Part shown: piece after piece, positions 10,177-63,407 of the stretch
Numbering within the stretch: the first letter of the stretch is position 1
Layout: each line of letters opens with the position of its first letter
From: a virus
IMG/VR virus record: IMGVR_UViG_3300025009_000068
Span: 25,433-89,432 of that record
Reading direction: 5' to 3' (one strand)
Length of the DNA stretch: 64,000 nt
Notes under the pieces: model-generated
What the model was told of the DNA's origin: nothing
Database searches by the model: none
The model's input: the letters and a program-made list of their open reading frames with translations, nothing else
Program-made: the position numbers and the translations under genes

Positions 10177-13100
10177 TTACGGCAACCTGAATCCCAACGT
10201 CACGGCTCCACCTTCTGTCCCGGTCCCCGCTTCGGTTACGCATGACGCCGTGATCGTGTCTCCGGTCGCAACGGTTGCGGCCCCGGCCACGGCAGAGATC
10301 ACAGCGGGCGTGGTGGCATCCTTGCTGTCGTATTCCGTAGCGTCAATGGTAAGATTGGTGGAAAGCATTTGTACCGCTGCATCTCTTGTGGCTGCCGCTG
10401 AAAGTCTGAATTTCTCAACCTTGAAAGTCGGGTTGTTCGCGCTGGAGACCGTCCCGACTTGAACCGCAGCGGACACCAGAACCATCCCGTTCATCTCGGC
10501 AGGAACTCGGAACATCCCGCTCGTATCGGCAATGACCAGTGCGGCATCGTCGGCGGTCACGAGAAGGTGAACCATGCGCGTCCCGATGTTGCTGCCAGCC
10601 AGGGCGTCGGGGGTTACGGCTGTCGTCGTGCTGGTTCCTGTGTTGACGTCATTCACGCTTGCTGCGGTCAACCACGCCGGGACATCAAACGTAGGAGCGG
10701 CGGCGGCCCCGTTGCTACGGAGATATGTCCCGTCAGCACCAAGAGCCAATTCCGTCGTGTCTCCGCTACCGTTGGAATAGAACACTCGCCAAGCGGTTTG
10801 ATTGTCGAAGTCCGTAAGGTTAGAAACCAGCGGAACACCCATGAATCGAATCCCACCGGCCCCCGTTGCCGCTTGCATGAATTCAAGGGCGAGATACTGA
10901 CTCGCCGCAATACTCGACGGAGCCCCGGCCCTATATGCCGTTCCGTAGGTGATGCTGCGCGGAGTCGCATCAGCATACAGAACTACAATAAACCTGGTTC
11001 CCACTAGCCCGTTCGTTGGGTTGGATAGTTCTATGTCCCCAGTCAATTCTCCTACCTGGACCACACCGCCGAGAGAAAGATCAATCGACCGAGGCGTTGC
11101 ATAGGCCAAGGACTGAGAAGTGTTGTCCTCGCCCTCGAGCACGAAAACGGGAGCATGATAGGCGACTGCTCCCGCAGTGATATTGGCATCAAGGGCCGGG
11201 TACACCGAACAAGCCAGCGTGTCATAGTTGCACGTCCCAATGGTAGCCGTATGCGTCGAGGCATCGTCCATCGTGAGATCCACGACCATGCCTGGAAATG
11301 CGTCCGTAGCCGAACTGAGTACCAGCGATGTGGCTCCATTTGTTCCGGTAGCCGTAGTTAAGCTCGTATTGAGTGTTCCGAGCGTCCCAGACTCTTTCAC
11401 GGTCCAGTAAAACGCAGGATTGACGGTCCACATCACCCTAGTTCCCTGCTTCCACGTACCATAAGCCGTGTTGGGCGCGTTGGCCGCCGACTTCCAGGAC
11501 TGACCGTTGTAGCGGACAGCGTGATTCATGCCCACCGTCAAATGAGCCGTGGGAGCTATCCCTAGATGCCATGCGTTTGAGTCGTCGTACTCTATTCCTT
11601 GAATGTATTTAGGGCTACTGGTACTTAATACGCGGAAAGAGTAGTCCGGATTCGGGGCGAGTCCTGACGCCGGGTAACTATTGGTCCACGCATTTCCTGT
11701 GAGAGTTAGTCCTTTTACTCCATCGCGAACCTCAACCCCCAGGGCATTCCAAAACTTTACACCAGAGATCACTATCCCGGTAGACCAGTCCCGGATATCA
11801 GCCAAGTCACCATCAGGATCACCTCTGACCAAGATGGAACGAGCACCACTGAACGTCTCGATGTCTCCGCCGCTGATTGTCACTCCGGATGATGCCGTGA
11901 TGATGAATCCTGGGGAAGCTCCGCCCGCTTCGACATTGGCCCCAAGAAAACTCACACCCTTTGACTTGTAGAGCGACCATCCCCATCCATCGAGTGGAGT
12001 AGCCGTGTAGTAACAGCCATAGGCGCCAGAGTCTGAAATGACCCAGTTGTTACTATTGTTTCCGAGCGTGAATCCACGCTTACAGTACACGGCCTTGCAG
12101 TTGATAACCTGATTGAAGATTGAACTGTAAACGTTGGGAGCAACAACATTCGCGTCAAGATTCATACCTTCGGTGAATTCCCTGAAATACAGATTCTCAA
12201 ACTTGCTGTTGATGCAATGCTTCAACTGAATGGCTGTCGCCGGATGCCAAGATACCCCGGCAGAATATGCAATGGTGTTCTTGAATTGGAAGTTCCTGAA
12301 CTCGTAACTTCGGCCAAGGTTACCGGTATCGTCGTCCTTGAAAAGGTATGTAGCCGAATCATTATACAGCGTGATGTATGTAGTCCTCCACGCCTCGCCT
12401 TCAAAGATTATGGTCCTGTACCCTCCGCTCAAGCTGGCGTCGGTCAAATCGAATCCATCATCAACCACATAATTTCCGGCCTTGAACTTGACCTTCGATG
12501 CACCTATGAAATAAGCTCCTGTAGTATTTGACAGTGCCTTGTACGCACAAAAAATGGCGTTTTGGTTAGCGGCCGCATAGGTATAGGTCGTAGTGTCGTA
12601 TGTTACTATAGCTCCCCACCACTCAGGGCGAACTTCCAAGGCAGATGGCATCAAAACTTCGCCGGGCAGGCTGCTGAACATCTGCCCGCCATTGTCTTCA
12701 ATTACGGAGCCCGCCGCGAAGGTGAGAGTATTTGCTGCCGATGTGGTGAGTATTGCGCCGGGAAGAACAGTGAACGTCATCCCAGAAGGGATAACCACCG
12801 GACCACCAAGCGTCTCAGCTTCGCTCTGCACCAACTTCACATTCGGCGAAAGCCCCAGCGCATCCACGGCTTCCACCAAGGAAACAAACCATCCCGAGTA
12901 CACGGTGGAGCCATCAGGAAAGGAAACTTCACTCCCTGTAGCGAATCGCTGCTGGTTCGGTGGATGTTCTCCGTCGTTATGGATGGTGAGCAAGAGCCCA
13001 TTCGTATCTATGACAGCACCGGGGGCTTGCGAGAAAACCTTCGTTACGGGGATCTCCATGCTGTCGGTAAGAGTGAAACTCTTCCCAGTCAATATTCCGT

Positions 13101-25296: not shown

Positions 25297-26961
25297 TTAC
25301 ATCTTCCCAACCTTGAAAGCCTTGAAAGCCCCGGCGTGCGTCTCCACCCCGCTCCCGCCGAGCGCCACGTCAAACCGATGCCCCATGGCGAGCTGCTGAA
25401 AAGCGTCGGCCCCATGCGCGTGCTCATCTTCAACGGGACTGCTGCTATATTGCTGCATGGCCTCGTTCCACTTTCGCCGGTAGTTTTCCAGGTGGATGAT
25501 GCCCCTCTCGCACTTCTGCTCATCGAACCAGCAAAGGGGAAGAATTACCCGGGCGGCCTCGATGGAGTCAGCCTTGGCCTGCACTCTCGGAATGGTCTGG
25601 AAGTGGATACCGAGGCCGGCCGCGATTGCCTTCCGGCTCCTGCCCTGCTCATCTAGCACTCGAGTCTCGATATCGTGAGGGGCGTAGTGAGTGCCATACC
25701 TGTAGCCACTCTGCTGCATGCCTTGCGCGCCGTTCGCGCCGTTCGCGCCGTTCGCTCCTTGCAAGCCCCGCAAACCCTGCCCTTGCTGCCGCTTAACCAG
25801 TTCGTCCCGATAGTAAGCAAATCCTTCTCCGGAGAACTCGAAATACTCAATGACGTGGATCTCTTTCACCACGCTCTGCGTGAACCAAATCGCCATGTAT
25901 CCGTCGAGCCCAAGGTCCCACCAGGTGTCCACCAGCAAATTCGGCTGATAGGGCACCCGGCAGATCCTGCCATCCGACCGAACTTTTGCCATCTCGGACG
26001 CCCAGAAGGCGCCCTCGATCTGCTGCTCAAAAGCCTCCTCGGGGGTGGAAGGATACTCGGACTTGATCTTGTCCCCGAGGTCCTCTTTCTTCTTGATGTA
26101 CCATGCTTTCTGATTGTGCGTGAGGCGAAGGCCAGGGCACGCCATCTCGGTCAGGGCGAAATACTGGATCATGGTCTGTGGAATGGGAACGATGCGAGCA
26201 TCCTCGTCCGAGAGCACATTCTTGGGATCGTCGGGCCATCCAAAGAAGTGCATCTTCCAGTCGAGTTGAGTAAGGCGATTTCCTTGACGCTGGTTGTTCA
26301 GGGCCTTTTGAGAGTAATCGTAGAAATATCCGGCCCGGCCCTCGGCTGTAGATTCGATGATGGTAACTTCGCCAACATGAACTGTATTCAGGGCTCCGGT
26401 TACAATTTCCTGCGCTTTGTCGGGATGCTTCGCACAGATTTTCCCAAACTCAGAAACGAGAAGGTATTGAAGAGTGCCGGACCGCATTGACCGACCAACG
26501 CGAATGCACGAGTCGTTTTCAAAGTGGAGCTCGTTCTTGGCCTCCGTCTTCGAGGGCTTAATCGCCTTCCGGAATTGATCCGGCAAATTGTCATAGGCGA
26601 AGCGGACCTTGTTCACGAAGATCTTGATAACGTCCGCATCGGTGTGAGCAATGATCCCAGCTTCAACGCATGAGTTGAAGAGGCAGCAATCAAGGAAGAA
26701 AATGCAGACGGCGGTTGTTATGCCGTGCTGCCTGGATTTCAGGACAATGTTTTTGTGCCAAAGCCCTTTCAGGAGACGGAATTGCCGCTGATTCAGGCGG
26801 AACCGCACCTTCTTCCCGGATTCGTTTTTCACAAAGTAAAGGTGATTCAGCCGCCAGTATTGGCTTGAGACAAGGGCCTCCTCTTCTTGGAAGGGATAGT
26901 CCTCGTTGGGAAGGGATTGCGTTTCAATCGCCGAAGATCCCGCCTGTCCAGCCTGCATCAC
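25297..26961 (-). CDS. terL: Terminase large subunit
   Basis: Walker A-like LKSRQHGITT; LVSEFG; IIESTAEG; nuclease motifs WWDLG, APHD and HGADAF. Confidence 0.92.
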   Translation of the reverse strand: MMQAGQAGSSAIETQSLPNEDYPFQEEEALVSSQYWRLNHLYFVKNESGKKVRFRLNQRQFRLLKGLWHKNIVLKSRQHGITTAVCIFFLDCCLFNSCVEAGIIAHTDADVIKIFVNKVRFAYDNLPDQFRKAIKPSKTEAKNELHFENDSCIRVGRSMRSGTLQYLLVSEFGKICAKHPDKAQEIVTGALNTVHVGEVTIIESTAEGRAGYFYDYSQKALNNQRQGNRLTQLDWKMHFFGWPDDPKNVLSDEDARIVPIPQTMIQYFALTEMACPGLRLTHNQKAWYIKKKEDLGDKIKSEYPSTPEEAFEQQIEGAFWASEMAKVRSDGRICRVPYQPNLLVDTWWDLGLDGYMAIWFTQSVVKEIHVIEYFEFSGEGFAYYRDELVKRQQGQGLRGLQGANGANGANGAQGMQQSGYRYGTHYAPHDIETRVLDEQGRSRKAIAAGLGIHFQTIPRVQAKADSIEAARVILPLCWFDEQKCERGIIHLENYRRKWNEAMQQYSSSPVEDEHAHGADAFQQLAMGHRFDVALGGSGVETHAGAFKAFKVGKM

Positions 26962-53424: not shown

Positions 53425-55701
53425 ATGTCTAAGCTGGCCAGGAAGACGCCATCACCTTGCAACGCATCTCAATCTTCCGCTCCCACCACCATCAACGCCG
53501 TAGAAACCATATCCGGGACCATAAAGGACATGAGCCGCCCCTTCACGGGAGGTTGGAGAATTATCCGGATCAGTGGCATTCCAGAAAAGGCTACCGGTGT
53601 TCTTCCGCTGGACTTCGAGGTCGGGGATTGCGTAACCCTGGAAGGGAAGTACGAAGAGACGGGGTACGGCCGGCAATTCAAATTCTCCAACGCCACCCGC
53701 GAGCTTCCCAGGGATACCATGGGAATCATCCACTACCTCGACCGCCTGCGCTGGGTCGGACCTACTCTTGCGCGTCGTCTCGTGGAGGCCTTCGGCCCAG
53801 CCCTCTTCGAAGTGATTGAGCACTCTCCCGGGAAGCTCTCCGAGGTCAATGGCATCACCCCGGCCCGAGCCCAGGAGATCCACGAGAAATACATCTCCAT
53901 CATGTCGGATCGCACGATTGACGTGTACTTCAGCACCCACGGGATAACGCCCTCCCTTCTGAACCGCCTCATGGACACTTACGGCACCAAGGAGAAAGCC
54001 AAGAAGCAGATCGAGGCCAACGTGTACCTTCTGGCCGACGATGTGTGGGGGATAGGCTTCAAGAAAGCCGACGCCATTGCCGTGTCCACCGGGATAAAAA
54101 AGGAAAGCAGGCGTCGTCTGACGGCCGGAATCAGGTATGTTCTGCAGGAAGCATCCGGTAGAGAAGGGCACACCTGTCTCCCCTTCGAGGAACTGGTCAA
54201 GCGCGCCGTGGAGATCCTCGAGGCCGGGAAGGAGAAGGTTGTTGAGGTGCTAAGCGAGATGATCGCCGCGGGGAAGCTGGTGGATTTTACGCCGGGGAGG
54301 GAAATGATGGGAATGGAGGCGCAGAAAAAGAGCGATGCCTTGAAGGAAGAAGCCCTTCCCTTCGAGGGTGATGCAGGCAAAGTCGATGCAACCACTCCCG
54401 CCCCCGTCACCTACATCTACACGGCAGAAATGTGGACCGCTGAAATCGACGTGGCACAGTCCCTCCTAAAGTTCGTCTCAACCCCCCATGCAGCCATGAT
54501 AAGCGAGCTCTCCTCGGATGAAATCAACTCCCTCGACCAAGACCAGCTTCGAGGCCTGGACCTCGCCATGACGTCAAAAATCATGGTTCTAGCGGGTGGG
54601 CCCGGAGTTGGCAAAACCCACTTGATCAACTTCATCATCCGAGCCATGGGTCGAGATTTGAATATTGCCCTGGCCGCCCCCACGGGAAAGGCGGCCAAAC
54701 GCATGTCCGAGGCAACCGGCGGTCGTGCGGCCATGACCATTCACCGCCTGCTCGCCTTTCATCCCGAGGTGGGATTCCGCCACAACCAGGACAACCCCCT
54801 CGACGTGGACGTGCTCGTGATCGATGAGACCTCCATGGTGGATGTGCAACTCATGGCGAGCCTGTTATCCGCGGTCAACCCGGAGAAGACGCAGCTTATC
54901 CTCGTTGGGGACCCGGCCCAGTTGCCGTCGGTGAGTGCCGGGAGGGTGTTGGGAGACATCATCGAATCGTGGATAATCCCCACAGTGCATCTCACCACCC
55001 TTCATCGCCAGGCCGCGAAGAGTTACATCAACCGGAACGCTCAGCGAATCAATCGCGGCGAGAAGGTTGAGCTCAAAAATGATGGCGACTCGGATTTCTT
55101 CTTTGTGACCGAGGAGGACAAGCACGGCATCGCCCCCATGATAGAGAAGGTGTGCGTGAAATTCTCCGCGCACTATGGGTTTGACCTGAAGGATATCCAG
55201 GTGTTGTGTCCCATGAAGAAGGGGCCGGCCGGGACGATAGAACTGAATAGGCGATTGAGGCCCGTGATCAACGTCGAAGGGGTGGCTATAGGCGGGACGC
55301 CTTTTTTGACAGGGGATAGGGTCATCCAGACGAGGAACGATTACAAGAAGATGGTGTTCAACGGGGACATGGGGATTGTGCTTGGAGGGGATGCGAGTGC
55401 CGTTGTGGTCATGATCGATGATCGGGAAGTCGAGTATGCTTCCAAGGATTTTGAGCAACTACAGATGGCTTATGCGCTTACTGTTCACCGATCACAAGGG
55501 AGTGAATTTCCCGTTGTTGTGATCCCGGTACACACCACAAATTATATTCAACTCCGGAGAAATCTCTTGTATACTGCCATCACTCGTGCTAAAAGGTATG
55601 TTGTCTTGGTAGGCCAACAAAAGGCAATAAACCTTTGCATAAGGACGACAGATGCAAGCAATAGATTTACAAATCTTGCAAGAAGGCTCAGAGGTCAATA
55701 A
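53425..55701 (+). CDS. recD2: RecD2-like SF1B helicase
   Basis: HhH repeats; GGPGVGKT; APTGKAAKR; IDETSMVD; VGDPAQLPSV; AYALTVHRSQGSEF; LYTAITRAK. Confidence 0.92.
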   Translation: MSKLARKTPSPCNASQSSAPTTINAVETISGTIKDMSRPFTGGWRIIRISGIPEKATGVLPLDFEVGDCVTLEGKYEETGYGRQFKFSNATRELPRDTMGIIHYLDRLRWVGPTLARRLVEAFGPALFEVIEHSPGKLSEVNGITPARAQEIHEKYISIMSDRTIDVYFSTHGITPSLLNRLMDTYGTKEKAKKQIEANVYLLADDVWGIGFKKADAIAVSTGIKKESRRRLTAGIRYVLQEASGREGHTCLPFEELVKRAVEILEAGKEKVVEVLSEMIAAGKLVDFTPGREMMGMEAQKKSDALKEEALPFEGDAGKVDATTPAPVTYIYTAEMWTAEIDVAQSLLKFVSTPHAAMISELSSDEINSLDQDQLRGLDLAMTSKIMVLAGGPGVGKTHLINFIIRAMGRDLNIALAAPTGKAAKRMSEATGGRAAMTIHRLLAFHPEVGFRHNQDNPLDVDVLVIDETSMVDVQLMASLLSAVNPEKTQLILVGDPAQLPSVSAGRVLGDIIESWIIPTVHLTTLHRQAAKSYINRNAQRINRGEKVELKNDGDSDFFFVTEEDKHGIAPMIEKVCVKFSAHYGFDLKDIQVLCPMKKGPAGTIELNRRLRPVINVEGVAIGGTPFLTGDRVIQTRNDYKKMVFNGDMGIVLGGDASAVVVMIDDREVEYASKDFEQLQMAYALTVHRSQGSEFPVVVIPVHTTNYIQLRRNLLYTAITRAKRYVVLVGQQKAINLCIRTTDASNRFTNLARRLRGQ

Positions 55702-56413
55702 AGAGACCTGGATTCCAGTGTGGTGGTGCCAGGATTATGATGTATCGAATTTTGGAAGGGTGAGATCGAGAAAAAGGAAATTACCAATAATACTTTCTGC
55801 ATGTCCAAACCAGTGGGGCTATTTGCAAGTTGCCCTGTGTCAGAATGGCAAGGTAAAATGTTGCAGAATTCATGTTTTGGTTTTGGAAGCATTTGTATGC
55901 AAGCGACCCAGTGGCAAAAATGCTAATCATAAAGATGGAAATAAGAATAACAATTTTGATTTTAATCTTGAATGGGTAACTCATCAAGAAAATGTAATCC
56001 ATTCATATAAAACTGAGTTAAAGCATGGTCTGCGTGGAGAGAAAAGCGGAAGGAGTAAACTAAAAGATGGTGAAGTGTGGCTTATTAAGAAGCTATGGCT
56101 TTCTGGAATACCGTCAATACTAATAGGCAAGATGTTCAAAGTAACTCCTCATCATACGGCTAGAATAGGAAGAGATGAGTTGTGGGGAGACATTGACATA
56201 TCTTATGATGAAGTTTCGCCAGTTAAATACAAAACAGATGATTATGGAGAGCGTCACTTCAAGTCCAAATGGAAAGATGGTGAAGTTTGGCTCATAAAGA
56301 AACTGCTTAACGCCAATATTGATAGAAAGATTATACAAAAGATGTTTAATATGAAAAAATCCAATCTTTCTCACATAGCTGTTGGTATGACGTGGCGTCA
56401 TATTGAAGTGTGA
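55652..56413 (+). CDS. NUMOD4-HNH homing endonuclease
   Basis: YDVSNFGRVRS (NUMOD4); ANHKDGNKNNN..NLEWVTHQENVIH; two repeated C-terminal DNA-binding units; AT-rich; start uncertain. Confidence 0.85.
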   Translation: MQAIDLQILQEGSEVNKETWIPVWWCQDYDVSNFGRVRSRKRKLPIILSACPNQWGYLQVALCQNGKVKCCRIHVLVLEAFVCKRPSGKNANHKDGNKNNNFDFNLEWVTHQENVIHSYKTELKHGLRGEKSGRSKLKDGEVWLIKKLWLSGIPSILIGKMFKVTPHHTARIGRDELWGDIDISYDEVSPVKYKTDDYGERHFKSKWKDGEVWLIKKLLNANIDRKIIQKMFNMKKSNLSHIAVGMTWRHIEV

Positions 56414-56459
56414 TGTTGGGCTCGGTGAGTAGACAACCCAGCGATTCGGGAAAGATCCA

Positions 56460-56708
56460 ATGGGCTGGAAGTTTGTGTGCCCCTCCTGTGGCTACGTTGC
56501 CAGCGTTAAGGATTGGAAGGATGCCGGGGCATCAGACCGGGAAGCGGCTTTCTCCTGTGTGGGACGAGCGATGAATTCTGATAAGCAGATTTTCGATAAA
56601 ACGGGCGGGCCATGCAATTACGCCGGCGGGGGGCTCTTTGGGCTCAACCCGGTCACGGTTGATTTTGACGGAAAGGCCATTAAGGTTTTCGCGTTTGCGG
56701 AAGCCTAA
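56460..56708 (+). CDS. Cassette 1 gene: VVA0879-like Zn-binding protein (possibly 5'-truncated)
   Basis: WKFVCPSCG..FSCVGR..CNYAGGGLF; its stop TAA lies inside the R'' box of attC1. Confidence 0.6.
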   Translation: MGWKFVCPSCGYVASVKDWKDAGASDREAAFSCVGRAMNSDKQIFDKTGGPCNYAGGGLFGLNPVTVDFDGKAIKVFAFAEA

Positions 56709-56795
56709 CCCAGTAATGAACCAGACGGGTACCACGCCTTGGTTTTATGCAGTCGGCGGTGCTAGGGTGCCCGCTGGTTATCGCCAAAGTTAGGC
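56703..56795 (+). mobile_element. attC site 1
   Basis: R'' GCCTAAC ... R' GTTAGGC; inner arms ATGAACCAG-A-CGGGTACC / GGTGCCCG-CTGGTT-AT with extrahelical bases. Confidence 0.88.
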
Positions 56796-56813
56796 CGCGC
56801 GAGAGTAAAGTCA

Positions 56814-57665
56814 ATGCCAAGAGCACAGCAAATGTCGGTAGTACCATTGCAAAACGTGGTCGCTGAGTCCGTGGGTTTTATGCAGGCTCATGAACCATCT
56901 GAGGGGTATATGGTTTGCAATAGTTTCGGCAAAGACTCAGTTGTGCTCATGGAGTTGGTGAAAATGGCTGGAGTTAAATGCTTTCCGGTCCACAGCTTCA
57001 CCGGCATTGATCCACCTGAGGCGATCAAGTTCGGGCTCAAGACATACCCTGATACTCGTATTTACCGTCCCGTCATGTCTATGTGGGAAGGCATCAGAGC
57101 TAAGTTTCCTCCCGTTTTTAATAAGCGCTGGTGTTGCGACGTACTAAAGAAAGACCCAACGAAAGCTATCCCCTTGAAACACAAACTGGTTGGCATACGG
57201 GCCGAAGAGTCTCCAGGGAGGAAAGAGCGTGGGAGGATTTCAAGGTTTCGCGGCAAATGGCAGTATTCTCCCATTTTCGAGTGGCACGAATGGCACGTCT
57301 GGGAGTTCATCGAAGGTCTTGGCCTGCCATTTTGCGAACTGTATGACCAGGGCTTTGACCGGATCGGCTGAATGGTGTGCCCTTTAATCGTCTCGGTCGG
57401 GATGGGTAAGGTGAAGCAGCACAGGCAAAGGTGGCCCGGATGTTATCGGGTTTTTGAGCATGCGGTCACATGGTGGTTCTGGAACAAGGCTGGCGAAGAC
57501 AAGACTCGCTGGCCCACACCCAAAGCATACCTGGACGCATGGTACCGTGGATTCAAATCATCTAACAAGCGCATGCAGCCGGACACCGACCACGCGGGGG
57601 CAATTCAGTTGCGTCTCTTCGAGTCCTCGGCCCGCGTGATCGGTGCCGCTGATGCGCAGCGTTAG
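56814..57665 (+). CDS. Cassette 2 gene: PAPS/APS-reductase-family protein, probable selenoprotein (Sec at UGA 57369-57371), 283 aa
   Basis: SFGKDS PP-loop, RWCC..LKK, GIRAEES..R, PIFEW..VW and GFDRIG-[TGA]-MVCP; the next ORF continues in frame; SECIS-like hairpin follows. Confidence 0.8.
57382..57411 (+). promoter_or_regulatory. Bacterial SECIS-like hairpin
   Basis: CUUUAAUCGUCUC-[GGUC]-GGGAUGGGUAAGG; about a 13-bp stem with G-U pairs and one mismatch; loop begins 23 nt after the UGA. Confidence 0.7.
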
Positions 57666-57667
57666 AC
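57560..57667 (+). mobile_element. attC site 2
   Basis: ATCTAAC AAGCGCATGCAGC..CACCGA.CACGCGGG / CCCGCGTG.TCGGTG..GCTGATGCGC..GTTAGAC. Confidence 0.88.
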
Positions 57668-57682
57668 GGCGAGGAGGTGGTG

Positions 57683-57883
57683 ATGGTAACAGTGAGTTTC
57701 CCGGCGGGCGACAGAGGTATCTCGTGCTGCGCCTGCGGCGGAAAGGTTATCGTGACGCGCACCACATTGAGGTGCCGCAAGTGCGGAACAACCGCACCCA
57801 ACGCTTGGGTGCCAAAGGGGTCTAACCCAGCAATGAACCCGACGCCGGCCACGCGCGTGAGTCGTGCTACGGAAACCCGTTAA
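57683..57883 (+). CDS. Cassette 3 gene: small Zn-ribbon protein
   Basis: GGAGGT RBS; CCACGG...CRKCG; reads into attC3. Confidence 0.6.
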   Translation: MVTVSFPAGDRGISCCACGGKVIVTRTTLRCRKCGTTAPNAWVPKGSNPAMNPTPATRVSRATETR

Positions 57884-57912
57884 GGCCGGCGCGGGTTATC
57901 GCCACGTTAGGC
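57820..57912 (+). mobile_element. attC site 3
   Basis: GTCTAAC..ATGAACCCG-A-CGCCGGCC / GGCCGGCG-CGGGTT-AT..GTTAGGC. Confidence 0.9.
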
Positions 57913-57933
57913 CGCGAGGCCCGAGGAGACGGA

Positions 57934-58110
57934 ATGAAAATGAAAGCGTGGGGCTATGCCCATCTCTTGGTCGAGGCGGAATTCGAAGTAGATGAGACTG
58001 GATGCGAGCATACGGAGGCAATGAAAGCTTTGAACGAGGCGGCCAGGAAAGAATACGGCATATATCCGTCGCAATTCGAGTTTTCGGATGGGATTAATAT
58101 CACGGAGTAA
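57934..58110 (+). CDS. Cassette 4 gene: 58-aa acidic hypothetical protein (not in the ORF track)
   Basis: GAGGAG RBS; MKMKAWGYAHLLVEAEFEVDE...DGINITE*; stop is 3 nt before attC4. Confidence 0.65.
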   Translation: MKMKAWGYAHLLVEAEFEVDETGCEHTEAMKALNEAARKEYGIYPSQFEFSDGINITE

Positions 58111-58113
58111 ATG

Positions 58114-58206
58114 GCCTAACCCAGGGCTGGAGCCGAAGCGGGCCACGCGTGGTGCTACGGAAGTCCGTGGTACTACGGCCCGCTCGGCTCAGCCCCAATG
58201 TTATGC
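58114..58206 (+). mobile_element. attC site 4
   Basis: GCCTAAC..GGGCTGGAGCCGA-A-GCGGGCC / GGCCCGC-TCGGCTC-AGCCC..GTTATGC. Confidence 0.9.
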
Positions 58207-58223
58207 GGCGAAAGGGGGAGGTG

Positions 58224-58433
58224 ATGAAGTGTGGAGCTGTCAACGAGACGTTCCCGCACGTGGCCTGTGAGTTGGAGCCAGGGCACTCGGGGAGACACGG
58301 GGCTATTAGGCCCATGCGTGGCGGTGGTGAGGGGGTGTATTTATGGCATAACCCAGGGCTGCAGGCGACGGCGGAGGAAGCCCGAGACGTTGGTTCAGAG
58401 TCCTTGGCCGCCGCGCCTGAGCCCCAATGTTAG
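58224..58433 (+). CDS. Cassette 5 gene: small Cys/His metal-binding protein
   Basis: GGAGGT RBS; C..C.L..GH.G.H motif; reads through attC5 to the TAG in GTTAG. Confidence 0.6.
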   Translation: MKCGAVNETFPHVACELEPGHSGRHGAIRPMRGGGEGVYLWHNPGLQATAEEARDVGSESLAAAPEPQC

Positions 58434-58435
58434 GC
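58346..58435 (+). mobile_element. attC site 5
   Basis: GCATAAC..GGGCTGCAGGCG-A-CGGCGG / CCGCCG-CGCCTG-AGCCC..GTTAGGC. Confidence 0.9.
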
Positions 58436-58458
58436 CACTTGGGACAGGAGCTGGAAGA

Positions 58459-58842
58459 ATGACGAAAAATGAACGGGTGGATATGGTCAATCAGGCATTG
58501 GAGGCAATCGCTTCCAACGGCAGGCGGTTTTTTTATCATGAAAACCGAGTGTCCAAGATGGAGGTGGACGCTAGAGGGCGAGTCTGGTTTGTGGATTCGT
58601 ACTCACAACGGCGCATTTTCACGCATTGCCCATTCAGCCGATGGAGAGGATTCACAAATGGCGGCACACTCAAGGCTCTTGTTTGTCATTTTAGGGACTT
58701 CATCACAAAAGCAAAGCCGGTACCGGCCCATTGCTTTGGACCGTGGCCGGAATGGTATTGCGATGGGGATCTGTGGGGTTATGGTGAAGATATGGCGTTG
58801 GTTCGGAGTGCAGCCGTGAAGATTGGTATTGTGGCGTCGTGA
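58459..58842 (+). CDS. Hypothetical phage protein after the last attC
   Basis: AGGAG RBS; GRRFFY..GRVWFVD..WRGFTNGGTL..DLWGYG; no attC follows. Confidence 0.65.
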   Translation: MTKNERVDMVNQALEAIASNGRRFFYHENRVSKMEVDARGRVWFVDSYSQRRIFTHCPFSRWRGFTNGGTLKALVCHFRDFITKAKPVPAHCFGPWPEWYCDGDLWGYGEDMALVRSAAVKIGIVAS

Positions 58843-58899
58843 CCCTGTGTGGTGGAGCCGAAGCTGGCAACTTGAGAGTGCTACAATGATCCGTGGAAT

Positions 58900-58962
58900 G
58901 CCTTGAAGGGAAGGGCTTGCTTTTTTACGCCACCAACGCAAGCCCTCCCATCCCTTCAAGGC
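58900..58962. terminator. Long hairpin between convergent operons
   Basis: GCCTTGAAGGGA..AGGGCTTGC / GCAAGCCCT..TCCCTTCAAGGC. Confidence 0.6.
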
Positions 58963-58988
58963 CGCATCAAATTCTTCCTTCTTAACCG

Positions 58989-59417
58989 TCAAACCACTCC
59001 CCACTCCACCAACTCTCTCTTGTACTTCTCCCCCTCGGCATGGATCAGCGCATGCATCCTGATCGCCCCGTCATTTCCTTCACCGAGCACACCCCGGTCG
59101 ATAACGAACTCATCGCCCTCATCGAGAATGCACACACTCCCCGTTCCACTGCTGTTCCTTTTCCGCCTATCCACAAATCTCCAGTCCTTCAAGCGAAGCC
59201 GGCAGCGCGCCCGAGCTGGAGCGATGAGTGTGCCGTCCGGATTCTTTTCCTCTTCGAAGTCGAGGTAGAGGTCTACGTGGCGTGGGAGGGGGTTGGAGTA
59301 GAGATTGAGGGGAGGGTTTGAGTTGGGGAGAGGGTTGGAGTTGGAATGTGAGGCAAGAGATGACGTGGATTGCCTTGAAGGGGAAGGGCTGTCTTTGGTG
59401 TTGCCGTAATCAGTCAT
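58989..59417 (-). CDS. Hypothetical protein
   Basis: AAGGAG RBS; 142 aa. Confidence 0.5.
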   Translation of the reverse strand: MTDYGNTKDSPSPSRQSTSSLASHSNSNPLPNSNPPLNLYSNPLPRHVDLYLDFEEEKNPDGTLIAPARARCRLRLKDWRFVDRRKRNSSGTGSVCILDEGDEFVIDRGVLGEGNDGAIRMHALIHAEGEKYKRELVEWGVV

Positions 59418-59433
59418 GGATGCCTTTCTCCTT

Positions 59434-60162
59434 TCAAGGTTTCTTGTATTTCAACAGATCCTGTTTGATGACATAAGCTTTTCCGTGTTGCTCGCATAAG
59501 GCCACGGCATCTTCAAGAAACTTCCCCCAATCAATGGCGGCCGCCCGTTTGTCGTGGTTCCATTTTCCGATTTTGAACGTATCCACGTAGAGCATGGCGG
59601 CCTCCATAATCATCAGCGACTCGCTCGGCACAATGACTGGCTCGATACTGGCCCACGTCCGGATGTTTCTGGATTGAGCTCGGTAAAGCATTTCGATGCG
59701 ATTCATCGGAAGCGCGGCATTGGGCTCCCATTTCAGCGACAAGGCGCTACTGTAAAACGTGAGGGTAGCTCCAATCTGAGAGTTGGATGCCGACAAAAGA
59801 TCAAAATCGCGGCATGCTTCCATTCCTCCCTTGGTCAGAATGTTGACAGAGTTTCCATGGTCTGTGATGATTTTGATTGCGTCCCTTGTCCTCCAGTGCT
59901 CCGTGCCGATACAGTAGGGGTCGCACGAGAAGCACAAGAACACGGGTTCGGAAAGCTGGCCGACTCGCGTCATGTCCCGCTTCAATCGTTCAAGGACATC
60001 GGGGGCCGGGGTCACTTTCGAATGGAACTCTTTCCGACTCACGTAAAATGGAGCGTAGCAGTAGAGACAGCCATGAGTGCAGCCCTTGTAGAGATTAGCT
60101 GCATATCCATGGTCGGCATACTCACCGGCCCGGCCGGATGGCGTGTAAATTAAAGGCCTCAT
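59434..60162 (-). CDS. Radical SAM protein (spore-photoproduct-lyase-like family)
   Basis: NLYKGCTHGCLYCYA CxxxCxxC; DPY, ILTKG and WASIEP motifs. Confidence 0.85.
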   Translation of the reverse strand: MRPLIYTPSGRAGEYADHGYAANLYKGCTHGCLYCYAPFYVSRKEFHSKVTPAPDVLERLKRDMTRVGQLSEPVFLCFSCDPYCIGTEHWRTRDAIKIITDHGNSVNILTKGGMEACRDFDLLSASNSQIGATLTFYSSALSLKWEPNAALPMNRIEMLYRAQSRNIRTWASIEPVIVPSESLMIMEAAMLYVDTFKIGKWNHDKRAAAIDWGKFLEDAVALCEQHGKAYVIKQDLLKYKKP

Positions 60163-60324
60163 GATTTATTTTCCTCCCCTCACCTCCACCCTAATCCTCT
60201 GCAACCATCCACACACTCGAGCGGTCCACTTCCATCGATGCTCATGATGCTTGAAGTCGCTACATGTCCACGCCATTTTGAGGCGATGCTTTTTTGTCGG
60301 CATGATCGTGCCCCCCATTTTCCT

Positions 60325-60810
60325 TCAAGGATATTTCAAAAGCTTGGCGTCTCCCTTAACATACAATGGGTGCCATGGTGCTCCGTCTTTCGTGAGCTTC
60401 AAACATTTGATCTTTCCTTGTTCGCTCTCACGCCTCAATAATTCCATTACTTCCATGTCCCTATGCATATGTCTTCCGTGAGTGCCCCACGCAGCCACAA
60501 TCAACGCAACCTCTCTGGAATAAGCATCAACCCATGTATCATTTTCGGGGCCGACAGGGATGGGATGAGCTAACATGACCTTGGGGTCGGTAGCTCGAAC
60601 CGCAAACAGATTGCACATGACTATTCCGCCATATCCCCAGGATGCGGCAAACCGCATGCATCGCCTTATGGTGGGGTCGTCCTCGGTCTCGGTTGCAGTG
60701 GATGGATTAAGACCGATCCAAAGCATGCCAGGAAGACTGGTATTCCAAACCCTGGAAAGGGAATAGCGATACGTGCGGCATTTCGAGAATATGGCTGATT
60801 TTGTTATCAT
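60325..60810 (-). CDS. DUF1643 family protein
   Basis: CRTYRYSLSRVW..IGLNPSTA..DDPTIRR..NLFA.RATDP..AAWG..PWHPLY. Confidence 0.85.
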   Translation of the reverse strand: MITKSAIFSKCRTYRYSLSRVWNTSLPGMLWIGLNPSTATETEDDPTIRRCMRFAASWGYGGIVMCNLFAVRATDPKVMLAHPIPVGPENDTWVDAYSREVALIVAAWGTHGRHMHRDMEVMELLRRESEQGKIKCLKLTKDGAPWHPLYVKGDAKLLKYP

Positions 60811-60816
60811 GTTGTT

Positions 60817-61536
60817 TTACCCTTCTTTTATATTACCTCTTTTCCCTTCTTCGCCACAATCCCGAAACCCGCTCCACCCCATTTTACAAGCATAATTTAT
60901 GCATGCACTATACGAATGACACTCTTCCGCGATGCTGTTTCCCAGGCACTTATGCCGCTTCGTCCCCTCCTTTGCTTTGATCGGAAAGCACACCTTCACA
61001 TCCCCTTCTTCCTTCTCGCCCACTTCCTTCCCACCGCCACCCTTCCTCCGAACCTCCTTCCTCTCATACCGAGGCAACATCTTCTCCGCCATCTCCCGTG
61101 CAAGCTCCCGTTTCTCCCGGTGTGAGATTTCGGCGCAGCTCTGGCAGTACCCGGTAAACCTTCTGCTGTCGCTCCCGGTCCTGGCGATGGTGTACTCTTT
61201 CCCGCAGGTTCCCTTGCAGAGATACGTGATCGTGGCCTGTCCCGAAAAGAGCGAGCAGGACGGCCAGGTGATGCGGTGATTGTATTTCTGGTAGTTGGCA
61301 AGGTAGAATTTCGGGTTTTGCCTGGCTATTTCGTGGATGGCATCGATGTAGCCATTGGAGGTTGGGGATTCGGATTCTGATCCGGAAGCTATCTTACAGA
61401 AGAACCTGTTGAACTTGCCGCCATCCTTTCCATGAAGGTCGGAATCTACGTGGTTGCAGTGCCGGCATAGTGTTCCGTCGGGACCCGGGCCGTGGAGTGC
61501 TACCATGGGGTTTCTATGGCGTGGCTGGTATGACAT
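60817..61536 (-). CDS. Cys-rich hypothetical protein
   Basis: Multiple CxxC pairs. Confidence 0.5.
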   Translation of the reverse strand: MSYQPRHRNPMVALHGPGPDGTLCRHCNHVDSDLHGKDGGKFNRFFCKIASGSESESPTSNGYIDAIHEIARQNPKFYLANYQKYNHRITWPSCSLFSGQATITYLCKGTCGKEYTIARTGSDSRRFTGYCQSCAEISHREKRELAREMAEKMLPRYERKEVRRKGGGGKEVGEKEEGDVKVCFPIKAKEGTKRHKCLGNSIAEECHSYSACINYACKMGWSGFRDCGEEGKRGNIKEG

Positions 61537-62475: not shown

Positions 62476-63407
62476 GGTATCCCCCAATAAAAAAGCGCCA
62501 GGGGGTACCGGACCAACAACGGCCCCCGCATACCTTACGATATGCGGTTCCCTGACGCTAACTGAATGTCTTGAAACAAAAATAGCCATTACGGAGGCTC
62601 CCGGTTGTTGTTTGGTTTGGAGAGTATGCCTCAAATCAAGTATGAATGCAAGAAAAACACTTCGGTGGTTGACCTGTCATCGGCTACCTTGGTTTCGTCA
62701 ACAACATCCTTGGACGTCCTCATCCTCGTTCCCTCCGCCATTCCCCATTTATCCACGTCCCTCCTCTCCACCCAAAGCCTCCCATCCCCAATTCACAAGA
62801 GCCATAAGCCCCGCCATTGCCCCGCCGCAGATTATGCCGACCGCCGCACAGGTCCAAAAGAGTTGCCATCCTTGAAGATCGAGAAGTGATTGCATGGTTT
62901 GTATCCCTTCCTACTAGATATCCATCTCTACTAGACATCCCTCCCTGCCGGATAAAGAGAAAGAAGAGAAATGATTAAAGCGGCTCCAGCATTCGGCGCG
63001 GTACACGACACCCTTCAGACCTATGCGCCGGTCGCTCTTGCGGAGTGGTGCTCTCGGAGCCGCTGATTGGATTGCTGCGTCATGCCGATCGGTTCCGCCG
63101 CCGGGACTCACGACCGATGTCTCGAAGGCGACGGCGCTTCGTGATGGCGTTGGCTTGTCTGCCACGGTTGGCGTCGGCGCGGGATACTCCCCGATTACTA
63201 AACCAACTCCGCTGCTCGGGGCGCACCGACCCATGAAACATATTGAATATGCTCATAACGGAGCTACGCAACAATGATCCATGTTCTCTTCTAACCAAGG
63301 TTGGCGAGTCATAGAATATCTTTTCTTTGGTATCAAGTGCTGCTTGGTGAGTCGGTCGATTCACGATTCTACCCCTTCCTTGTTCTTCTCGTTACTTGCT
63401 CTTCTCG

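Follow-up and report, generated by a model that had tools for sequence, protein, structure and literature searches.

A probable integron-type cassette array lacking an integrase in a groundwater phage genome

Do the complementary ends of successive short genes in a phage genome record the integration of circular cassettes, as they do in an integron? And if so, do they record events on the phage itself or in a bacterial donor? These questions are raised by a locus in the IMG/VR virus record IMGVR_UViG_3300025009_000068 (89,432 bp; hereafter G000). The last 64 kb of that record, its positions 25,433 to 89,432, constitute the window analysed in this paper. We conclude, with a probability of roughly 80%, that window positions 56415-58905 form an integron-type array carried by a phage, consisting of five mobile-looking cassettes and one fixed cassette. 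The array would be a cluster of attC sites lacking integron integrases (CALIN), whose cassettes are presumably moved by an integron integrase (IntI) of the host. All coordinates below are window positions, unless they are marked as genome positions or carry an L-locus label.

The genome is rated 100% complete by CheckV, and it encodes portal, TerL, internal virion protein and primase/helicase homologues. Since its terminase is at best 44% identical to those of cultured phages in a TerL search, the host could not be inferred from cultured phages. The public sequencing runs listed as containing the stretch are groundwater metagenomes, with no RNA runs among them. The array is placed at the 3' end of a replication/recombination operon on the + strand, which ends with the genes for a RecD2-type helicase (53425-55701) and an HNH/NUMOD4 endonuclease. 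Directly 3' of the endonuclease gene are six short open reading frames (ORFs), and each of the first five is followed by an imperfect palindrome of 90-108 nt. The list below gives, for each palindrome, its outer boxes (R''...R'), its score under a covariance model, and the z-score of its bottom-strand fold relative to shuffled sequence. The model, called R1, was home-made from nine sites, and it was also used to find further arrays of the same attC family among viral and metagenome contigs.

56415..56421, + strand: putative left junction of the array, GTTGGGC (G|TT), two bases past the stop codon of the HNH gene
56416..56789, + strand: cassette 1; ORF 56460-56708, 82 aa, a CxxC protein of the VVA0879 family
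56703..56795, + strand: attC1, 93 nt, GCCTAAC...GTTAGGC, family A; R1 83.1 bits, z = -1.9
56790..57661, + strand: cassette 2, 872 bp; ORF 56814-57665, PAPS-reductase family, with an in-frame TGA at 57369-57371
57560..57667, + strand: attC2, 108 nt, ATCTAAC...GTTAGAC, the most divergent site; R1 56.2 bits, z = -7.0
57662..57906, + strand: cassette 3, 245 bp; ORF 57683-57883, 66 aa, zinc-ribbon-like (CxxC...CxxC)
57820..57912, + strand: attC3, 93 nt, GTCTAAC...GTTAGGC, family A; R1 96.8 bits, z = -4.5
57907..58200, + strand: cassette 4, 294 bp; ORF 57934-58110, 58 aa, no family
58114..58206, + strand: attC4, 93 nt, GCCTAAC...GTTATGC, family B; R1 85.5 bits, z = -4.5
58201..58429, + strand: cassette 5, 229 bp; ORF 58224-58433, 69 aa, reading through attC5
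58346..58435, + strand: attC5, 90 nt, GCATAAC...GTTAGGC, family B; R1 72.9 bits, z = -3.2
58430..58905, + strand: cassette 6; ORF 58459-58842, 127 aa, PF27459 / phrog_23101
about 58843-58905: truncated attC remnant after the cassette-6 ORF, like the 5' half of attC4, with a degenerate R'' and without L'/R'
G000 genome 4650-5121 (L002:1122-1593), outside the window: second locus with a single cassette, a 118-aa ORF and an intact attC (attC0), GTCTAAC...GTTAGAC

Are these palindromes attC sites? An attC site carries a conserved extrahelical T and a second extrahelical base that is usually G, at a required spacing of 6 bp; its central spacer measures 5-6 nt and its total length 57-141 bp (Nivina et al. 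2016, PMC5027507). In the window, all sites present R'' and then R' on the coding (top) strand, which also carries all of the ORFs, and their lengths fall between 90 and 108 nt. The R'' box matches RYYYAAC strictly in attC1, attC3 and attC4, and the R' box matches GTTRRRY in attC1, attC2, attC3 and attC5; the boxes off consensus are the R'' of attC2, ATCTAAC, and the boxes GTTATGC and GCATAAC, each by one base. Compared with shuffled sequence, the bottom strand folds stably in four of the five window sites (z = -3.2 to -7.0), attC1 being marginal (z = -1.9), and in the singleton site outside the window (z = -7.9). It folds as well as or better than the top strand in five of these six sites. 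The bottom strands of attC1, attC3, attC4, attC5 and attC0 display an extrahelical T and C, with a 6-bp stem between them, on the arm opposite the AAC triplet, and G-T wobble pairing closes the central spacers in the bottom strand only. Compensatory double changes occur in 14 of the 24 consensus pairs of the nine model sites, and thus it is the structure, not the sequence, that is conserved. The geometry is that of attC, and one base identity deviates: the extrahelical base proximal to L'' is C, where G is usual (PMC5027507). Judging by box order, folded bottom strand, covariation and length, the window sites are in all probability attC sites, and two or more sub-families of them are mixed in this very short array.

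The deviating base invites another explanation, namely that the palindromes are phage-specific elements (terminators, REP-like repeats, or sites of an unknown phage recombinase) whose likeness to attC is coincidental or convergent. Such an origin would suit a genome in which no integrase was found, and hairpins like those of attC can be weak terminators (PMC9892861). It would also suit the Rfam search of 55500-60000, which returned only two sub-threshold miRNA-like chance matches on the terminator hairpin; Rfam, however, has no attC family. What the explanation fails to predict is the full anatomy of the sites, with R''/R', L''/L', the extrahelical spacing and a wobble-paired central spacer that favours the bottom strand. 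Nor does it predict that each unit contains one ORF, that 18 of 24 cassettes obey the own-end rule set out below, or that the same family recurs in multi-cassette arrays on contigs with bacterial genes. We therefore regard a phage-specific origin of the palindromes as highly improbable.

If the sites are attC, the ends of the cassettes carry information of their own. Each cassette starts with the complement of its own R'', and not necessarily of the R'' in the same site, since the cut leaves the following six bases to the cassette that comes next. The assignment of those bases to the following cassette is the classical argument for a crossover between G and TT, and is reportedly due to Hall, Brookes and Stokes in 1991 and to Stokes and co-workers in 1997. 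An earlier note on this DNA, made from its letters alone, had described exactly this pattern, and every 7-mer that it quoted lies where the note placed it. Cassette 3 opens with GTTAGAC (57661-57667, the R' of attC2) and carries GTCTAAC as its own R'' (57820-57826, in attC3); cassette 4 opens with GTTAGGC (57906-57912, R' of attC3) and carries GCCTAAC (58114-58120, attC4); cassette 5 opens with GTTATGC (58200-58206, R' of attC4) and carries GCATAAC (58346-58352, attC5). In these three cassettes the opening 7-mer is the reverse complement of the cassette's own R'' at all seven positions, and in cassette 2 at five of seven, just as the note had it.

Pairing within a cassette also outperforms pairing within a site, as the note implied: three of four cassette pairs in the window are perfect, versus one of five site pairs (attC1 at 7/7, the other four sites at 6/7). 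The difference is larger when nine arrays of the same attC family are pooled, where own-end pairing is perfect in 18 of 24 cassettes and same-site pairing in 5 of 33 sites. In L149, a contig of a distant G000 relative whose helicase is 63% identical at the amino acid level, three consecutive cassettes with different 7-mers (GTTAGGC, GTTAGAT and GTTATGC) all pair at 7/7. When each cassette is circularised in silico and folded, as the note had proposed, the R stem is fully paired again in cassettes 3, 4 and 5, with gains of 2.0, 3.2 and 3.8 kcal/mol; in cassette 2 the stem is not restored. The motifs described as shared by attC1 and attC3, by attC4 and attC5, and by attC3 and attC4 are visible in our alignment. 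End complementarity is a diagnostic that belongs to classical integron biology and is not new. We treat it as a quality mark for genuine cassettes and not as a discovery in itself.

Do the same units occur elsewhere with the same boundaries? A homology search shows that they do. The contig L149 contains a homologue of cassette 5 that starts at GTTATGC and ends in an attC with GCATAAC, in the company of different neighbours both upstream and downstream. Its attC is 92% identical to attC5 (blastn), and the two ORFs are 57% identical in amino acids, including the tail encoded by attC; the off-consensus pair GTTATGC/GCATAAC travels with this cassette. Likewise, L135 holds a homologue of the singleton cassette in another context, with the same leader and a family-A attC. 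Units of ORF plus attC that recur in different contexts, that are bounded at G|TT and that follow the own-end rule have the appearance of mobile cassettes.

The closest comparison is provided by a sibling phage, G003 (IMGVR_UViG_3300002097_000027; 85.3 kb), most of which aligns with G000 at a nucleotide identity of about 80-98%. At the first locus, that of the window, G003 is without the HNH gene and cassettes 1-5. It has instead a single unrelated cassette, which opens with aTTAGAC and closes with a GTCTAAC attC, followed by cassette 6 (96% amino acid identity to that of G000) together with its truncated attC. At the second locus, one cassette in G000 stands against two unrelated cassettes in G003; here the backbone homology ends on the left at ...GTGA(TT)|TTAGRC and resumes on the right at the terminator. 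At both loci, the two phages cease to be homologous precisely at the TTAGRC with which the first cassette begins. The earlier note had held that break points unrelated to the GTT positions would contradict it, and the sibling break points fall on that very motif. Its view that the units were once circles opened between G and TT is thereby supported, as it is by the moved homologue of cassette 5 and by the pooled own-end rule.

Integron arrays grow with a variable proximal end and a fixed distal end. Cassette turnover between the two siblings is at the proximal end, and cassette 6 is the fixed distal cassette; the R1 search found no intact attC after the cassette-6 ORF.

The note had further suggested a common cassette pool, an idea that is supported by evidence from beyond the siblings. 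The same attC family is shared by two or more unrelated phages and by arrays that look bacterial. Sequence resembling attC4 and attC3 is also present on other contigs of the source sample, at two to three times the depth of the phage. One of the phages otherwise unlike G000 is G001 (IMGVR_UViG_3300002220_000391), a 39-kb temperate phage with a tyrosine integrase, rated complete, which has three R1 sites in addition to attC-like sites seen by eye. The other, G002 (IMGVR_UViG_3300003154_000218), differs in portal and terminase and has three sites. Multi-cassette arrays of the family are found, too, on contigs whose remaining genes look bacterial; among these are a CHASE2 histidine kinase, a Pycsar-type TIR effector cassette, DUF6414, Uma2 and Band_7 pairs. 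No bacterium with the family motif was found when 185,579 species genomes (one per prokaryote species) were scanned for 18 bases of it, the five matches being due to chance and none being attC. A scan of viral contigs for a 5' motif returned 48 matches, mostly due to chance, of which L008, L027 and L045 are real and L039 is a weak candidate. A scan of the same kind for the 3' motif GGTTATCGCCANNGTTAG returned four chance matches. Because L027 and L008 contain GGTTATCGCCANNGTTAG and yet were not listed, such collection scans can miss true sites.

In G001 we also observe three mini-palindromes, TAAC-AACAC-TGTTA, whose R''-like and R'-like boxes nearly abut (L027:10228-10250, 11078-11100 and 11990-12010). 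They are interspersed with ordinary attC sites of 58-93 nt, and they could be collapsed or minimal recombination sites.

Several observations weigh against an array assembled on the phage by integron recombination. Cassette 2 is a poor fit, as GTTAGGC (56789-56795) and ATCTAAC (57560-57566) pair at only 5/7. Because GTTAGGC is common and the repertoire of 7-mers is small, an exact permutation test confined to the window yields p = 0.083 (10/120), and the window by itself is only suggestive. End complementarity alone does not tell whether the integrations took place in the phage or in a bacterial donor. Gene models across the G000 genome and the motif scan of species genomes yielded no IntI, attI or host. 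The left junctions read A|TT or T|TT, not G|TT, in three of four cases. To these we must add the extrahelical C noted above, and the fact that the join between cassettes 3 and 4 lies inside an assembly repeat.

The most serious competitor that these points raise is that the array arose in a bacterial chromosomal integron, from which the phage captured it en bloc through illegitimate or homologous recombination, as in an accident of packaging or transduction. The G|TT footprints would then record events in the donor bacterium and not in the phage. The end signature is heritable, and it would look the same if the order of cassettes had been set in a bacterial donor. Arrays that look bacterial and carry defence-type cassettes (TIR Pycsar effector, DUF6414, Uma2) do contain the attC family, G000 is without an integrase, and its left junctions are not clean G|TT. 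But siblings whose backbones are about 80-98% identical differ cassette by cassette at two loci while their flanks and cassette 6 are kept, and so capture en bloc would have to have happened several times, independently, at the same two points. Moreover, it is precisely at the first TTAGRC that the siblings cease to be homologous, three or more of the cassettes carry genes of phage protein families (phrog_424, phrog_23101 and phrog_32023), and the nearest relatives of cassette 2 in the viral scan are phage genes that are not cassettes. We accordingly judge capture en bloc to be unlikely, and retain integration on the phage as the preferred reading.

The assembly itself must also be considered. 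The Logan contigs of the source runs break at the 3' end of attC3, and the 37-nt unitig spanning 57883-57919 is about three times as deep, so that the join between cassettes 3 and 4 rests on a repeat. Could phage contigs have been fused at the attC repeats with pieces of a bacterial integron? The contigs that end inside attC3, and the deep unitig, are what such a chimera would produce. However, both sides of the break hold cassettes as well as phage backbone (the helicase and HNH genes with cassettes 1-3 on one contig, cassettes 4-6 with downstream phage genes on the other), and at equal depths of 12.4 and 12.6. Independent assemblies from other samples, G003 and the contigs X5/X7, show the same architecture: an attC and cassette 6 follow the helicase gene, and the downstream genes after them are those of G000; X5/X7 (17.9 and 34 kb), from other groundwater samples, reproduce the arrangement of G003. 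A chimera is thus the least probable of the explanations we have weighed. A read joint in X5 from 57914 to 58115 was set aside as uninterpretable: it is a single low-depth contig with a 31-nt side and does not fall at G|TT.

How, then, would cassettes move in a phage that encodes no integron integrase? Models TIGR02249 (integron integrase) and PF00589 (tyrosine recombinases in general) have no match across the whole 89-kb G000 genome, and in the five related or attC-bearing virus records (G001-G005) no gene reaches the IntI cut-off. G001 does encode a tyrosine recombinase, of the ordinary Xer-like kind, at 49 bits versus an IntI cut-off of 265. No attI was recognised at the array, which is therefore not a complete integron (intI + attI + Pc, the cassette promoter). 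Five attC sites within 1.8 kb and no integrase make the array a CALIN, and in the absence of an integrase gene from G000 it would have to rely on a host IntI. Integron integrase IntI1 has been shown to recombine phage-borne attC sites (PMC9892861), and cassettes can integrate at genomic attG sites, as Loot et al. (2024) are cited in PMC12614218.

The mechanism that we propose is as follows. The phage would replicate in a host expressing IntI, and the bottom strands of its attC sites would fold from single-stranded phage DNA. Acting in trans, the host enzyme would cleave between G and TT and so pass circular cassettes from the host pool to the phage and back. The founding insertions may have entered non-attC, attG-like xTT sites at operon ends, and later ones would enter at the promoter-proximal end of the array. 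Transcription of the cassettes would presumably come by read-through from the upstream phage operon.

The cassette-1 protein matches NCBIfam NF041591 at 78 bits (cut-off 37), with a weak match to phrog_32023, and the cassette-2 protein, of a type that many phages encode, matches Pfam PF01507 at 2e-24 and phrog_424; attC2 encodes the last 35 or so codons of the latter ORF. The proteins of cassettes 3-5 and of the singleton (58-118 aa) have no family matches, and a scan of viral contigs with the cassette-6 protein matched only G003. Cassettes carry their own ribosome-binding sites. Right after R', unrelated cassettes have a common leader that contains this site, GTTAGRC-CGCGAGGCC... or GTTAGAC-GGCGAGGAGGTG-nTGATG, which begins at window positions 56789, 57661, 57906 and 58200, at L027:10548, and also occurs in L135 and L149. 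The conservation of cassette starts thus extends past the 7-bp core.

Cassette 2 deserves separate treatment on account of its internal TGA. This codon aligns with the invariant first Cys of the RxG-C-xxCP motif of the PAPS-reductase family. Among 59 viral homologues, the same codon is TGC or TGT in 36 recognisable ones and TGA in two (L058:3667 and L062:3595), the latter being the core copy of G003. These two homologues are 46-60% identical, and the frame remains open and conserved past the TGA to the C-terminus of the family; two database proteins end one residue before the Cys position. TGA otherwise serves as a normal stop in G000, for instance at the ends of the HNH gene and of cassette 6. 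In all three TGA genes a hairpin lies 13-19 nt after the UGA, with a GGUC apical loop in the window gene, and some Cys-form controls fold at that place too. A selenoprotein check found a tRNA gene in neither phage, and a 2026 review of prokaryotic selenoproteomes makes no mention of the PAPS-reductase family or of phages. A TGA at an invariant Cys codon, in cassette 2 and in two phage homologues, suggests a phage selenoprotein.

The same gene hints at an exchange between core and cassette. The R1 search found no attC next to PAPS-reductase homologues at the 59 phage loci except in G003, and so the gene is not normally a cassette. G003 carries its own PAPS-reductase gene (46% identical, with TGA) in a backbone position on the - strand (L003:12427-13287). 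The matching backbone position in G000 (62902-62965) holds only about 60 bp, and the cassette copy is the sole PAPS-reductase gene of that phage. The cassette-2 copy may substitute for a core gene that has been lost. As a separate observation, among phage homologues of the cassette-2 gene that are not cassettes, the closest one has a C-terminal tail (L056:3740-3850, against window 57540-57690) that is homologous to the 5' arm and loop of attC2, and that is without its 3' arm and R'. This tail represents either a decayed, fixed former cassette or a hint that attC originated at the end of a phage gene.

The surroundings of the array include two further features.

55652..56413, + strand: HNH/NUMOD4 homing-type endonuclease gene (Pfam HNH_3, NUMOD4; PHROG HNH families)
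58895..58967: GC-rich hairpin with T-runs and two CCTTGAAGG/CCTTCAAGG palindromes, terminator-like

The HNH gene is the flank directly upstream of the array and not a cassette; it is not present in the sibling, and blastn homology of the window with G003 stops at 55561. The junction GTTGGGC (56415-56421) pairs with the R'' of cassette 1 at 6/7, and the R1 search found no attI-like or attC structure upstream of it. A candidate degenerate attC inside the 3' end of the HNH gene (56305-56421) was rejected: its arms are not palindromic, and R1 detects nothing there. HNH-type endonuclease genes stand at or near the promoter-proximal end of arrays in three phages without shared backbone similarity, directly so in the window (55652-56413) and at L045:9158-9631 (- strand), and about 700 bp upstream in L027 (8535-9509). 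In L045 the HNH stop codon abuts an attC, so that there the gene may itself be a cassette. The recurrence of an HNH gene next to arrays in three phages could be coincidence.

On the other side, the hairpin at 58895-58967 is terminator-like and closes the + strand operon as well as the convergent - strand genes. A 9-bp palindrome, CCTT(G/C)AAGG (at 58901, 58953 and 59373), forms the stems of terminator-like hairpins flanking the array. A scan for promoters and terminators yielded no more of them than shuffled sequence does. Immediately downstream of the array, a 1.9-kb block that is not in G003 (58971-60842) holds a 142-aa ORF, a weak sub-threshold radical-SAM match and a DUF1643 protein (- strand). 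At the second locus, the singleton cassette sits between a structural-region gene and a terminator.

What might such arrays do for phages? We put forward, as a tentative reading that we hold to be possible but less likely than its negation, that the cassettes are not stray cargo from bacteria but a phage-adapted cassette pool, from which apparently virulent phages without an integrase use host IntI to trade very small accessory genes. With the same reserve, the trade might run among unrelated phage lineages and the bacterial arrays of one community, and its cargo might include phage-family proteins. Equally doubtful is that the cargo includes a probable selenocysteine homologue of PAPS reductase in replacement of a lost core copy. 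In current discussion, integrons serve bacteria as stores of anti-phage defence cassettes. Should the phages that infect such bacteria draw on the same recombination system, then the integron becomes a shared marketplace in the arms race, and phages become vectors of cassettes between hosts. The two sibling phages, with different cassettes at two defined sites, make up a natural comparison, and the attC sites of the locus are directly suited to the standard recombination assay.

Phage CALINs are already published: Qi, Rajabal, Ghaly, Tetu and Gillings (2023, PMC9892861) described 17, some of them in virulent phages, and found that IntI1 recombined five of six phage attC sites tested. The present array is a further case. 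It resembles theirs in having at least two attC sites and co-oriented small cassettes, with no IntI nearby and with boundaries near terminators or GTTRRRY-like motifs, and the published set spans temperate and virulent phages. The present array differs in having five intact sites and a truncated one, plus a second, single-cassette locus. What this case adds to the published set (PMC9892861) is turnover between siblings at both loci, several cassettes that encode proteins of phage families, and one attC family that is common, within one habitat, to several phage lineages and to bacterial-looking metagenome arrays.

Like classical integron cassettes, those of G000 leave the last six bases of R' to the following cassette, share the RYYYAAC/GTTRRRY boxes and fold on the bottom strand, and their sites have the extrahelical T, the 6-bp stem between extrahelical bases and a length within the 57-141 bp of known attC sites (PMC5027507). 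Unlike classical integrons, the array is without intI, attI and Pc, has C in the place of G, and contains one off-consensus pair, GTTATGC/GCATAAC. With attG integration, so far as Loot et al. (2024) are cited in PMC12614218, it shares the location of cassettes outside integron platforms at short degenerate sites, in that the phage sequence next to the first cassettes is not attC and ends in xTT, a candidate attG; here, by contrast, the target is a phage genome, and three of the four junctions carry A or T in place of G. Finally, as in sedentary chromosomal integrons with homogeneous attC families, such as the VCRs of Vibrio, the attC sites of different cassettes are far more similar than the ORFs. 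In contrast to those integrons, at least two attC sub-families are mixed here within a very short array, which resides on a virus and is without a known cognate integrase.

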